From positions 1-15,261 of IMG/VR virus record IMGVR_UViG_2545824644_000012: DNA of 15,261 nucleotides. One strand, written 5' to 3'. Below are positions 5,367 to 14,862 of this stretch, one piece after another. The DNA is from a virus. Its lineage: Duplodnaviria; Heunggongvirae; Uroviricota; Caudoviricetes. The notes beneath the pieces are model-generated. The model saw only the letters and a list, made by a program, of their open reading frames with translations, had not been told where the DNA came from and did no database searches. The position numbers and the translations under genes were made by a program. The number at the start of each line of letters is the position of its first letter. Position 1 is the stretch's first letter.

Positions 5367-5654
5367 TTAAAGATTAGCGGGGAATTGTCGACGGGCGTGA
5401 ACCACGTTTACAATTTCAATACCTGAAGTTGTCACCCGGTACAAAATTATGTAATTGGGGTGAGCCACAATCTCGCGCAAACCTGGCACTCTGTCGCTTG
5501 GCGGATATAAATACGGATGTTCGGATAACGGCAGGACGCAAGCTCTTAAGCGTTGCCATAAGCGTTCTGCCGCATCTATGTCGAAACGGGCAATATAACT
5601 AGTTATATCATCCAGATCGGTATCTGCGCTTTCAAGCCATAACACGGGTAACAT
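5367..5654 (-). CDS. parE2: ParE/RelE-family type II toxin (ParE2-like)
   Basis: 95-aa ORF starting directly after the antitoxin stop (TAA-ATG); RelE/ParE-like size and sequence; partner of a PaaA2-like antitoxin. Confidence 0.8.
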   Translation of the reverse strand: MLPVLWLESADTDLDDITSYIARFDIDAAERLWQRLRACVLPLSEHPYLYPPSDRVPGLREIVAHPNYIILYRVTTSGIEIVNVVHARRQFPANL

Positions 5655-5846
5655 TTACTGCTCTCTCCGTTCCTTGCGAATTTTGGCAAAGCGTTCTGCC
5701 ATTCTGCGCTCAACTTCATCATGTGGAATAGCAGGACGTGGATCAGCAAGGCTTGCGGCTACTTTTGCGCGTAACCATTCGTTATAACTGTTTTCTTGCT
5801 CAACGGTTTCAAATTCAGAAACCATTGGTGAAAGGGCTGTATTCAT
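5655..5846 (-). CDS. paaA2: PaaA2-like antitoxin (63 aa)
   Basis: Using the internal Met gives MNTALSPMVSEFETVEQENSYNEWLRAKVAASLADPRPAIPHDEVERRMAERFAKIRKERREQ, near-identical to the recalled E. coli O157 PaaA2. AGGAGG 6 nt upstream of this ATG; the longer track ORF (to 5909) would overlap the repressor gene. Confidence 0.85.
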   Translation of the reverse strand: MNTALSPMVSEFETVEQENSYNEWLRAKVAASLADPRPAIPHDEVERRMAERFAKIRKERREQ

Positions 5847-6385: not shown

Positions 6386-6646
6386 ATGCTCAATAGCACC
6401 CGTGAAAAAATTAAGCAGAAATACACACAGGCTGAAATAGGACGCTATATGGGAGTAACCCAACAAACTGTTTGGCAATGGTTTAGCTTGGGTATTCCTC
6501 CCAAACAGGTAATCCCTTTATGCCAACTAATGCAGTGGGGGGTTACTCCTCACGAACTCCGACCTGATATTTATCCTAACCCAACAGACGGCTTGCCTGC
6601 TGAGTTTCAGACTAGCACACAGCCAGCGACGGGAGTTGATTCATGA
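6386..6646 (+). CDS. Cro-like HTH regulator (YdaS family)
   Basis: 86-aa ORF; GAGGAGGG Shine-Dalgarno; motif GVTQQTVWQW..GIPP...ELRPD typical of YdaS/Cro-like proteins; divergent from the repressor. Confidence 0.7.
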   Translation: MLNSTREKIKQKYTQAEIGRYMGVTQQTVWQWFSLGIPPKQVIPLCQLMQWGVTPHELRPDIYPNPTDGLPAEFQTSTQPATGVDS

Positions 6647-7068
6647 AAATCAAGCATGAGCACATCCGCATGGCGATGAATGCCTGGGCATATCCTGACG
6701 GTGAGAAAGTTCCCGCAGCTGAAATAGCCCGGACTTATTTCGAACTGGGGATGACGTTCCCGGAACTGTACGACGACACTCATCCTGAGGCCCTGGCTCG
6801 TAATACCCAGAAAATTTTCCGTTGGCTGGATAAAGACACCCATGATGCTGTTGAAAAAATTCAGGCTCTGTTACCGGCGATCGAAAAGGCGATGCCGCCT
6901 TTGCTGGTGGCCCGTATGCGCAGTCACAGTTCTGAGTACTACCGGGAGATTGTCGAACGGCGGGATCGGCTGGTGAAGGATGTCGACGATTTTGTTGCGT
7001 CAGCGGTCGTTTTGTATGACCAGATAAATCGCGGCGGCCCGGCAGGGAATGCTGTGGTGATGCACTAA
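6643..7068 (+). CDS. YdaT-family protein (CII-like regulator / putative toxin)
   Basis: 141-aa ORF beginning MKIKHEHI, as recalled for Rac YdaT; ATG overlaps the cro-like stop (ATGA), matching the ydaS-ydaT arrangement. Confidence 0.6.
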   Translation: MKIKHEHIRMAMNAWAYPDGEKVPAAEIARTYFELGMTFPELYDDTHPEALARNTQKIFRWLDKDTHDAVEKIQALLPAIEKAMPPLLVARMRSHSSEYYREIVERRDRLVKDVDDFVASAVVLYDQINRGGPAGNAVVMH

Positions 7069-11593: not shown

Positions 11594-11749
11594 ATGAAGC
11601 AGCAAAAGGCGATGTTAATCGCCCTGATCGTCATCTGTTTAACCGTCATAGTGACGGCACTGGTAACGAGGAAAGACCTCTGCGAGGTGCGAATCCGAAC
11701 CGGTCAGACGGAGGTCGCTGTCTTCGTAGACTACGAATCTGAGAAGTAA
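11594..11749 (+). CDS. hok: Hok/Gef-family type I toxin (HokD/RelF-like)
   Basis: 51-aa ORF MKQQKAMLIALIVICLTVIVTALVTRKDLCEVRIRTGQTEVAVFVDYESEK with the Hok signature; AAGGAG upstream. The in-frame upstream ATG at 11537 (track ORF) would add a 19-aa extension. Confidence 0.85.
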   Translation: MKQQKAMLIALIVICLTVIVTALVTRKDLCEVRIRTGQTEVAVFVDYESEK

Positions 11750-12285: not shown

Positions 12286-12334
12286 TCGCGCAGTCAGCCT
12301 GAACAACTGACACCTGCTGTCACCGGAGAATCCG

Positions 12335-12607
12335 ATGACACAACACATAAAATCCCACAATTCTGAAGCCGACCCGGAAATTAAGCAGGGGAGGCGTTTT
12401 CGTGCGCCTCAGTATGGCTGGTTTCACTATCTGTTCTGTACGATCGATGAGGCAGATATGCTTCAAGAGGCGTATCTGCGTCGCGGTGTCCGTGTGGAGC
12501 GGAGTCTGAACGCTGATCGTCTGACCTGGACCGTTTCTGTATATCTTCCTGTTCGTGCACATCTGCCACGGACACATGCCTGCTACCGTCAGCGCGTCTG
12601 GAGGTAA
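12335..12607 (+). CDS. Hypothetical 90-aa protein (occupies the position of rem in Qin)
   Basis: ORF with GGAG 7 nt upstream; its stop TAA lies inside the ribosome-binding site of the next gene (GGAGGTAATGTG), indicating translational coupling; no recognisable domain. Confidence 0.5.
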   Translation: MTQHIKSHNSEADPEIKQGRRFRAPQYGWFHYLFCTIDEADMLQEAYLRRGVRVERSLNADRLTWTVSVYLPVRAHLPRTHACYRQRVWR

Positions 12608-12608
12608 T

Positions 12609-13658
12609 GTGCGGGTATTACTTCGACCTGTTCTGGTTCCGGAACTCGGGCTGGTGGTCCTTAAGCCCGGTCGTGAATCATTGCCAGTTTTTCATCGCGG
12701 CAGGGTGCTGGTGGAGCCGGAACCGAAAAACATGCGCGGTCTGCCGTCCGGAGTCGTTCCTGCCGTTCGCCAGCCGCTGGCAGAGGATAAAACATTACTG
12801 CCATTTTTCAGCGATGAGCGGGTTATTCGTGCAGCAGGTGGTGCAGGTGCACTGTCTGACTGGTTATTACGTCACGTGAAATCCTGCCAGTGGCCACACG
12901 GCGATTATCATCACAGCGAAACCGTCATTCACCGTTACGGTACCGGCGCGATGGTGTTGTGCTGGCACTGTGACAACCAGCTGCGCGACCAGACATCAGA
13001 ATCACTCGATCAACTTGCTCAGCAGAATCTGGTTGCCTGGATGATTGACGTCATCCGTCACGCAATAAGCGGTACGCAGGAGAGGGAGTTATCGCTGGCC
13101 GAATTATCCTGGTGGGCGGCCTGCAGTCAGGTGGTGGATGCACTACCTGAGGCAGTAGCGCGTCGTTCGCTGGGATTACCAGCGGAAAAAATCCGCTCCG
13201 TATACCGTGAGAGTGACATCGTACCGGGAGAACAGACAGCCATCAGCATACTGAAGCAGCGCACAAAAAATATTGCGCTGCCACTTCACGTCCACCAGCA
13301 ACAAAATCCACCACAGAAAAAAACGGTTGTCAGTATCGCCGTTGATCCGGAGTCTCCTGAATCGTTCATGAGGCGGCCTAAACGTCGCCGTTGGGTTAAT
13401 GAGAAATACACGCGCTGGGTAAAGACACAGCCGTGTGCGTGTTGTGGTAAGCCTGCTGACGATCCGCATCACCTGATTGGTCATGGTCAGGGGGGAATGG
13501 GGACAAAGGCCCACGATATTTTCACGCTACCGTTGTGCCGGGAGCACCACAACGAACTTCATGCAGACCCGCTGGAGTTTGAGAAAAAGTACGGCTCTCA
13601 GATTGAGTTAATTTTTCGTTTTCTTGATCACGCCTTTGCGACTGGCGTGCTCGGGTAA
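12609..13658 (+). CDS. DUF968-like protein (YdfU family) with C-terminal HNH-like Cys/His motif
   Basis: GTG start at 12609 (GGAGG 4 nt upstream) gives 349 aa; C-terminal CACCGKPADDPHHLIGHG...CREHHNELH resembles an HNH/zinc-binding nuclease motif. The track start at 12555 lacks a ribosome-binding site and overlaps the upstream gene. Confidence 0.65.
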   Translation: MRVLLRPVLVPELGLVVLKPGRESLPVFHRGRVLVEPEPKNMRGLPSGVVPAVRQPLAEDKTLLPFFSDERVIRAAGGAGALSDWLLRHVKSCQWPHGDYHHSETVIHRYGTGAMVLCWHCDNQLRDQTSESLDQLAQQNLVAWMIDVIRHAISGTQERELSLAELSWWAACSQVVDALPEAVARRSLGLPAEKIRSVYRESDIVPGEQTAISILKQRTKNIALPLHVHQQQNPPQKKTVVSIAVDPESPESFMRRPKRRRWVNEKYTRWVKTQPCACCGKPADDPHHLIGHGQGGMGTKAHDIFTLPLCREHHNELHADPLEFEKKYGSQIELIFRFLDHAFATGVLG

Positions 13659-13670
13659 AAGAGGTGACTG

Positions 13671-14044
13671 ATGCTCATAGATTTGGTTTTACCTTACCCG
13701 CCGACGGTGAACACTTACTGGAGACGCCGTGGCAGCACATATTTTGTATCAAAAGCAGGGGAGCGTTATCGCCGGCAGTGGCGCTTATTGTTCGCCAGCA
13801 GCGACTGAAATTAAGCCTGTCCGGACGGCTGGCAATAAAAATTATTGCAGAGCCACCGGATAAGCGTCGTCGCGACCTGGACAATATTCTGAAAGCACCG
13901 CTGGATGCGCTGACGCATGCGGGAGTGCTTATTGATGACGAGCAGTTTGATGAAATCAATATTGTACGTGGTCAGCCAGTATCTGGTGGACGTCTGGGGG
14001 TGAAGATTTACCCCATAATGCTTGAAGGGCAGGTCAAAAAATGA
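13671..14044 (+). pseudogene. rusA: rusA Holliday-junction resolvase, apparently disrupted by a -1 frameshift
   Basis: From ATG 13671 (AAGAGG 6 nt upstream) the frame reads MLIDLVLPYPPTVNTYWRRRGSTYFVSKAGERYRR, matching the RusA N-terminus, then stops at 13806-13808. The RusA C-terminus (AVALIV...PDKRRRDLDN...) continues in the -1 frame to 14044. The shift maps to the G-run near 13774-13776. Confidence 0.65.
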
Positions 14045-14862
14045 AACTGGAAGATTTACCGAAATACTACTCCCCAAAATCCCCCGGCCTGACTGATGCA
14101 TCGGCCTCAACGTCAAAAGATGCGCTGAGTATCACTGATGTGATGGCCGCGCAGGGCATGACACAGAATCGGGCTGAGATGGGGTTTTCTGCGTTCCTTG
14201 GGAAAATGGGCATTAGTATGAATGACAGAGAGCGGGCAACAGAATTGCTGACAGAATATGCACTCAGTCGGTGTGATCGCGTGGCGGCGTTAAGAAAACT
14301 CCCGGCAGAAATAAAACCGGCAGTGATGCGAATTATGGCTTCGTATGCGTTTGAAGATTATGCCCGTAGCGCGGCGAGCAAAAAACAGTGCCCCTGCTGT
14401 CACGGAAAAAAATTTATTGAAAGCGAGGTTTTTACAAACAAGATCCAGTATCCGGATGGTAAGCCGCCAGTGTGGGCAAAGTGCACAAAAGGCGTGTATC
14501 CGTCTTACTGGGAGGAATGGAAAAAAGTCAGGGAGGTGGTAAAAGTTGCCTGTCCGGAGTGTGGCGGAAAGGGGGAGGTTTCCACCGCCTGTAAAGATTG
14601 TCGTGGGCGCGGTGTTGCCATTCATCGTGAAGAGTCGGAAAAACAGGGTGTGCCGGTTTTCAGAAACTGCCAGCGTTGTGGTGGGCGTGGCTATGAAAGA
14701 TTACCTTCAACGGAGGCATTTAATGCCATATGTAATGTAACCGATGCCATATCTCTTGATACATGGAAAAAAACAGTTAAACGTTTTTACGATACGCTGG
14801 TGGTGCAGTTTGATATTGAAGAAGCATGGGCAGAACAACAACTGAAAAAGGTGACCAGATAG
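14041..14862 (+). CDS. Putative Q-type late antiterminator (QuuQ-like) with DnaJ-type CxxCxGxG zinc-finger repeats
   Basis: 273-aa ORF; ATG overlaps the rusA stop (ATGA). Cys motifs CPCCHGKK, CPECGGKG, CKDCRGRG, CQRCGGRG. Position between rusA and a downstream promoter-like region matches lambdoid Q. Confidence 0.55.
   Translation: MKLEDLPKYYSPKSPGLTDASASTSKDALSITDVMAAQGMTQNRAEMGFSAFLGKMGISMNDRERATELLTEYALSRCDRVAALRKLPAEIKPAVMRIMASYAFEDYARSAASKKQCPCCHGKKFIESEVFTNKIQYPDGKPPVWAKCTKGVYPSYWEEWKKVREVVKVACPECGGKGEVSTACKDCRGRGVAIHREESEKQGVPVFRNCQRCGGRGYERLPSTEAFNAICNVTDAISLDTWKKTVKRFYDTLVVQFDIEEAWAEQQLKKVTR

Follow-up and report, generated by a model that had tools for sequence, protein, structure and literature searches.

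The locus considered here raises two questions, namely what kind of protein is encoded by a DUF968 gene that lies shortly before the antiterminator gene of an Escherichia coli prophage, and at which codon its translation begins. The window, meaning the whole stretch of DNA that was analysed, is 15,261 nt long and is a lambdoid prophage integrated beside ompW in E. coli; positions 12300 to 13800 are 99.9% identical to E. coli strain OkiPb01678. The original prediction had described the product as bearing an HNH-like Cys/His cluster in a protein family without a defined function. Jablonska et al. (2017) had placed DUF968, together with DUF1364 (YbcO), in His-Me finger group 7 and named YdfU among its members; they noted RusA and Q as neighbours and proposed a role in recombination or repair, like that of NinG and the RecA-dependent nucleases (PMC5714182). 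A zinc-finger HNH motif was also described in "DUF968" proteins of Gram-positive origin whose N-terminus is Orf-like (Curtis et al. 2014, PMC4118853), and RefSeq labels the homologues in SfII and mEp390 "HNH endonuclease". The literature on DUF968, ydfU, and PdcB yielded no functional study of the enterobacterial YdfU subfamily, and YdfU appears there only in lists. For this subfamily the phrase "without a defined function" still holds biochemically, but the fold assignment has been in print since 2017. The window gene is an ordinary, already annotated member of a known family, and the HNH reading is correct and not new.

The gene, its neighbours, and its start codon

The RefSeq gene order in this region is hok/gef, a ydeI-like OB-fold gene, a 90-aa hypothetical gene, the DUF968 coding sequence, a frameshifted rusA, and the antiterminator Q. 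The features needed for the argument are as follows.

5367-5846, minus strand: relE/relB (RefSeq annotation of a near-identical record)
11594-11749, plus strand: hok/gef-family gene (RefSeq annotation of a near-identical record)
12335-12607, plus strand: upstream gene of 90 aa and unknown function (phrog_1212, E = 1.5e-34; RefSeq WP_000191872.1)
12600-12604, plus strand: Shine-Dalgarno GGAGG, read from the sequence and part of the conserved junction CTGGAGGTAA(C/T)GTG
12609-13658, plus strand: DUF968/YdfU-family coding sequence of 349 aa, GTG start, TAA stop at 13656-13658 (PGAP WP_021499165.1, same coordinates)
13671-14044, plus strand: rusA (Holliday-junction resolvase), ordinarily the partner of the DUF968 gene and here a pseudogene (three-frame translation against intact RusA, DNA alignment, PGAP "frameshifted", partial Pfam RusA match)
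14041-14862, plus strand: late-gene antiterminator Q (Pfam Antiterm, E = 5.3e-52; RefSeq "antitermination protein")

Membership of the DUF968/YdfU family is established by a whole-model match to Pfam DUF968 (PF06147), in which residues 160 to 346 cover model positions 1 to 171 of 171 with E = 6.6e-77 and 257.8 bits against a gathering cut-off of 27.8. PHROG 96, annotated as HNH endonuclease, matches over residues 1 to 348 with E = 7.3e-174; NCBIfam has no match to the protein. Among 1.84 billion cluster representatives, searched exhaustively, there were 3200 relatives at E <= 0.001, and 31 representatives align end to end with the window protein in the YdfU manner, the N-terminal module included. 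The gene is an intact copy of ydfU, a common prophage gene of E. coli, and DNA resembling it is found in 4547 of 5426 complete E. coli genomes, often in several copies per genome. YdfU of the Qin prophage in E. coli K-12 has the same two-module architecture and the same length of 349 aa, and its gene is about 83% identical in DNA to the window gene, with which it shares the GTG start junction and the position before Q. The differences between the two genes are allelic only, although the prophage with the window copy lies beside ompW and carries a frameshifted rusA, a gene that Qin lacks between ydfU and ydfT.

Two oddities of annotation were met among the homologues. Some GenBank records name them "antitermination protein Q", labels that look like annotation spill-over from the adjoining gene. 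There are also long "fusion" proteins (P0145, P0185, P0186, P0239, P0126, and P0034) that join the N-terminal part of DUF968 to tail-fibre, tip-attachment J, portal, or Q domains; these were discarded as true architectures and are probably products of prophage deletion or assembly chimeras.

The position of the gene is likewise established as a conserved one. DUF968 adjoins RusA, just before Q, in E. coli prophages, in SfII, in mEp390, and in Hafnia phage yong2, and Q marks the end of the delayed-early (nin) region. In the window itself, rusA has lost 1 nt from a G run between 13773 and 13774 (intact CGCCGGGC, here CGCCGGC), so that its frame shifts after residue 35 and the listed ORF at 13664-14044 is the shifted remainder. 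The same 1-nt lesion is present in the 99.9%-identical RefSeq record. A partnership between the DUF968 product and RusA therefore cannot operate in this prophage, although the DUF968 gene is itself intact. A ydaS-like helix-turn-helix gene (6386-6659, plus strand), 5' of ydaT, is likewise marked as frameshifted in the near-identical RefSeq record and, together with the frameshifted rusA, suggests prophage decay. According to the same annotation the prophage carries two loci of toxin-antitoxin type, relE/relB and the hok/gef-family gene, the latter a few hundred bases 5' of the DUF968 operon segment.

The open frame that contains the gene runs from 12525, and the longest ORF begins at 12555. 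The original prediction had preferred GTG 12609, coupled to the upstream gene, over an "ATG at 12555"; the codon at 12555 is in fact GTG, and the sole in-frame upstream ATG is at 12576. GTG 12609 is in frame, stands 4 nt past GGAGG, and follows by 1 nt the TAA of the upstream gene (12605-12607), whose last codons contain the Shine-Dalgarno of the DUF968 gene. This junction of Shine-Dalgarno, upstream stop, one base, and GTG is kept in all six loci compared, with only the C/T position varying, while the 60 nt on its 5' side are strongly diverged among them; it is a translational-coupling arrangement with the upstream 90-aa gene. PGAP and RefSeq begin the gene at GTG 12609 in the 99.9%-identical record and use the corresponding codon in five diverged E. 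coli loci, and all 31 relatives begin with M-[R/K]-x-L-L at aligned residue 1. The DNA and protein comparisons thus support GTG 12609 as the true start, in agreement with the choice made at the outset.

Translation from GTG 12555 or ATG 12576 would give a product of 360 to 367 aa overlapping the upstream gene, and the open frame and the two start codons do exist in the window. Yet in four of the five diverged loci the frame contains no start codon on the 5' side of the GTG, and by megablast the homology of many alleles to the window begins only at about 12590 to 12597. Conservation at the protein level is lacking in the extension but reaches the last residue of the upstream product (...QR[VI]WR* in the five diverged loci, at 31-39% identity), so that this DNA is read in the frame of the upstream gene. 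With the relatives and PGAP also starting at 12609, we give the longer product next to no chance. A coupled start at the out-of-frame ATG 12607 (TAATG) was considered and rejected, because its frame is not that of the gene and because five other loci carry C where the window has T at 12608. The 90-aa ORF that it opens (12607-12879) is most likely spurious because this ATG is not conserved.

The C-terminal HNH domain and its nearest relatives

An AlphaFold2 model of the window protein was built on an alignment of the protein with the 31 full-length relatives (32 sequences, relatives at 26-81% identity) and has a mean pLDDT of 86.9. It consists of two modules joined by a linker of low confidence, and among the relatives the linker region carries large indels (alignment columns 230-340).

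12609-13274, plus strand: N-terminal module, residues 1-222 (AlphaFold2 models, pLDDT 86.9 and 88.7)
13275-13343, plus strand: length-variable linker of low confidence, residues 223-245 (pLDDT below 50 at 226-240)
13344-13655, plus strand: C-terminal HNH (His-Me finger) domain, residues 246-349, with a conserved basic lead-in (D246, P257, K258)
13434-13436, 13443-13445, 13536-13538, and 13545-13547, plus strand: putative zinc ligands C276, C279, C310, and H313
13470-13472, plus strand: putative general base H288
13548-13550 and 13560-13562, plus strand: putative catalytic-metal ligands H314 and H318

The translation contains the Cys/His cluster that had been predicted, made up of C276, C278, C279, H287, H288, H292, H302, C310, H313, H314, and H318; this is 11 such residues within 43, compared with 26 in all 349. 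In the alignment C276 is invariant, and the other principal positions are conserved in most of the 32 sequences (C279 in 26, H288 in 29, C310 in 27, H314 in 28, and H318 in 28). The cluster is not a chance pattern because it lies within a whole-model DUF968 match and is conserved in the aligned relatives. In the model the C-terminal domain has strands at 285-288 and 306-309 followed by a helix at 311-319, and this arrangement supports a beta-beta-alpha-metal (HNH) fold. H288 would then sit at the end of strand 1, with H314 and H318 on the helix, in the places of the catalytic histidine and the metal ligands of an HNH enzyme. C276, C279, C310, and H313 match the CxxC ... CxxH/C pattern of a structural zinc site and would assign the domain to the zinc-finger HNH subclass.

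The best structural match to the model is Ref of phage P1, with further matches to the HNH domains of McrA, TagI, GVE2, Cas9, and ZRANB3. Searches of PDB sequences found nothing relevant by phmmer, only chance C2H2 zinc-finger matches at E of about 1, and zero matches by profile (hmmsearch), so the link to the fold rests on the predicted model. That model, the PHROG 96 annotation, and the published His-Me finger classification agree in supporting the zinc-stabilised HNH-type fold that had been proposed, and structure prediction, the check suggested for it, did return an HNH-like fold.

The relative that is most informative about individual residues is Gp16 of the staphylococcal phage PhiNM1, reported to be an early nickase that interacts with host RecA (NAR 2026, PMC12817073). 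Its effects on the host are inhibition of growth and replication and condensation of the nucleoid; the growth inhibition needs host RecA, and RecA enhances cleavage by Gp16 in vitro (PMC12817073). Its gene is expressed early and lies near ssb, replication genes, and rusA. The HNH core of Gp16 is 41% identical to that of the window protein (E = 5e-10), with C-x2-C-G-K-P...H...LCREHHNE.HA in common, and the LCREHHNE.HA motif is identical in the window protein apart from one residue. Gp16 residues C145, C148, C181, and H184 align with C276, C279, C310, and H313, and H157, H185, and H189 of the nuclease centre align with H288, H314, and H318. The published mutations cover the zinc ligands C148, C181, and H184 and the nuclease-centre residues H157, H185, and H189, and it is from the alignment to these mutated residues that we infer the zinc and metal ligand roles in the window protein.

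The resemblance of the window protein to Ref and Gp16 is not membership of their families, since both Pfam thresholds are missed and the N-terminal module differs. Gp16 belongs to HNHc_6 (PF16784) and passes the DUF968 threshold as well, whereas the window protein reaches 23.1 of the 26.6 bits needed for HNHc_6, and only over model positions 123-175, the HNH core. Ref (PDB 3PLW; Pfam PF16786) is related over 106 aa by BLASTP at E = 2e-5, but the window protein has no match to the corresponding RecA_dep_nuc model in Pfam at E <= 0.01. Ref has 186 aa and a disordered basic N-terminus where the window protein has a folded module of about 220 residues, and its gene adjoins cre/mat in P1, a different position from that of the window gene. 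NinG/Rap of lambda (PF05766) was not matched either, the Pfam list at E <= 0.01 holding DUF968 and HNHc_6 only. YbcO (DLP12/phage 82; DUF1364; PDB 3G27) is a single small domain in an 81-residue chain, 20% identical and without the N-terminal module.

Homologues over the full length exist in P1 PdcB and P7 Upf95.7, which are 26% identical over 91% of the query and match the Pfam family at E = 5e-50. Unlike the window protein, they have other residues in place of the catalytic histidines, though the Cys ligands are still present. P1 pdcB is on record as non-essential and of unknown function. P7 upf95.7 (L009 2405-3448) stands directly 5' of the late promoter activator gene lpa, a placement that mirrors the position before Q in lambdoid phages.

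The N-terminal module

The N-terminal module opens with a short stretch rich in beta structure, and its helical body includes a tight beta-hairpin and helix at 105-125. Residues 1-159 belong to no Pfam family; a scan of 27 N-terminal halves gave only the first 60 or so positions of DUF968, from residue 160 onwards. The one profile in this part, phrog_11007, has no assigned function and covers residues 2-135. A NinB match is absent, and the NinB/Orf-like N-terminal domain of Gp16 is unlike this module. The AlphaFold2 models place on the hairpin and helix a second conserved cluster.

12885-12977, plus strand: second conserved Cys/His cluster (C93, H101, C118, W119, C121, D122, N123)

C93 and C118 are invariant among the 32 sequences, and W119 and D122 nearly so. 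Position 101 is Cys in 18 of 32 and either Cys or His in 30 of 32, and position 121 is His in 24 of 32 and His or Cys in all 32. Foldseek gave nothing significant for the module, and what resemblance there is to HNH folds is weak. An hhalign comparison of the two modules as an internal duplication was not significant (E = 0.13, probability 0.5%), though its register is the one to be expected, setting the C93 region opposite the CxxC region and LCWHHDN opposite PLCRxxHxxLH. A BLAST sub-alignment pairs residues 93-118 with the HNH of Gp16 at E = 0.087. In the 32-sequence alignment there is no conserved histidine at the end of strand 1 of the module, H108 being variable. The conserved cluster and its hairpin-and-helix setting suggest, at most, a second, probably degenerate HNH-like zinc module in the N-terminal half, which is plausible; the Foldseek and hhalign results and the variable H108 speak against it.

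Taken further, proteins of the YdfU type may be tandem HNH proteins, in which a degenerate N-terminal module (C93, C/H101, C118, H/C121, W119, D122) would recognise branched DNA or a RecA filament and direct the C-terminal HNH to nick D-loops. We regard this extended proposal as tentative and rather doubtful.

Proposed role and its significance

We consider it probable, with some reserve, that the window holds a lambdoid-prophage gene of the ydfU type, coupled through its GTG, whose product is a two-module zinc-stabilised HNH nuclease likely acting on recombination or replication intermediates. The gene, lying in the nin region between the small gene of unknown function and rusA-Q, would be translated from GTG 12609 by coupling. 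The C-terminal 100 or so residues would form the zinc-stabilised beta-beta-alpha-metal nuclease, in which C276, C279, C310, and H313 would hold the structural zinc, H288 at the end of strand 1 would serve as the general base, and H314 and H318 on the helix would hold a catalytic divalent metal. The N-terminal 220 or so residues could supply recognition of the substrate or of a partner. The activity may consist of nicking or cleaving recombination and replication intermediates, such as D-loops and branched DNA, during lytic growth, and the enzyme may act together with RusA and perhaps need RecA filaments, like P1 Ref and Gp16. On our best reading the DUF968 product would be an accessory HNH enzyme of the delayed-early phase, either a nickase or a nuclease directed by DNA structure; its nuclease activity, substrate, RecA dependence, and N-terminal function are what we infer. 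P1 Ref cleaves only RecA-bound DNA (PMC4330346), and RecA dependence is a reasonable extrapolation from Ref and Gp16, but it may not transfer because the N-terminal module resembles neither that of Gp16, which is NinB-like, nor the basic, disordered tail of Ref.

The protein could instead be a non-catalytic DNA-binding or regulatory protein, with the HNH and zinc modules serving as zinc fingers that act on late-gene control or on replication and recombination proteins. The DUF968 family can persist without catalysis, since the subclade of P1 PdcB and P7 Upf95.7, together with P0195, P0218, and P0254, has lost the equivalents of H288, H314, and H318 and kept the cysteines. The gene always directly precedes a late regulator, either Q or Lpa, and some homologues bear the "Q" labels mentioned above. 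In Gp16, moreover, the strongest phenotype came from mutations in the zinc finger, and mutations of the catalytic histidines did no more than weaken it (PMC12817073). Against this, the complete catalytic set is kept in the window protein and in 28 to 29 of 32 relatives. The protein has no similarity to Q, the Pfam Antiterm match belonging to the separate gene at 14041-14862, and the "Q" labels look like spill-over from that neighbour. We therefore hold a non-catalytic role in the window protein to be unlikely.

A nuclease engaged in host takeover or conflict, either a toxin-like effector that damages or condenses the DNA of the host or a factor for exclusion or anti-defence, would be an alternative to the recombination accessory. 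The effects of Gp16 on host growth, replication, and the nucleoid would fit such a role, as would Ref, which is reported to raise ciprofloxacin lethality (PMC4713147), and the accessory genes of the region (hok/gef, the ydeI-like gene, and relBE). None of the PADLOC defence-system protein models matched at E <= 0.01, however, and the gene belongs to the conserved nin/RusA/Q backbone and does not occupy a variable cargo slot. Its retention in 84% of complete E. coli genomes, with many copies in cryptic prophages, sits badly with an unregulated toxin, and this role too appears improbable.

A terminase-associated HNH that aids cos or pac cleavage in packaging, as HK97 gp74 does, is very hard to credit, since such proteins are small, single-domain, and beside terminase genes, whereas the window protein has 349 aa in two modules, the terminase genes of the near-identical prophage lie about 9 kb downstream, past Q, tRNAs, and lysis genes, and the top matches are Ref, YbcO, and Gp16 rather than enzymes of the gp74 type.

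The finding as such matters little, as the gene, its start codon, and its HNH class are already in RefSeq, Pfam/PHROG, and the literature. YdfU is nevertheless still an uncharacterised "y-gene" of E. coli K-12, and what interest remains concerns its biochemistry and a possible tandem-HNH architecture. Among characterised proteins, the two nearest to its nuclease core are both RecA-dependent nucleases with effects on the replication of host DNA and on antibiotic lethality. If the tandem-HNH proposal were true, the protein would be an enterobacterial counterpart of Ref and Gp16 carried in most E. coli genomes. Assigning a function to YdfU would cover a family present in thousands of prophages, including the Shiga-toxin-converting phages.
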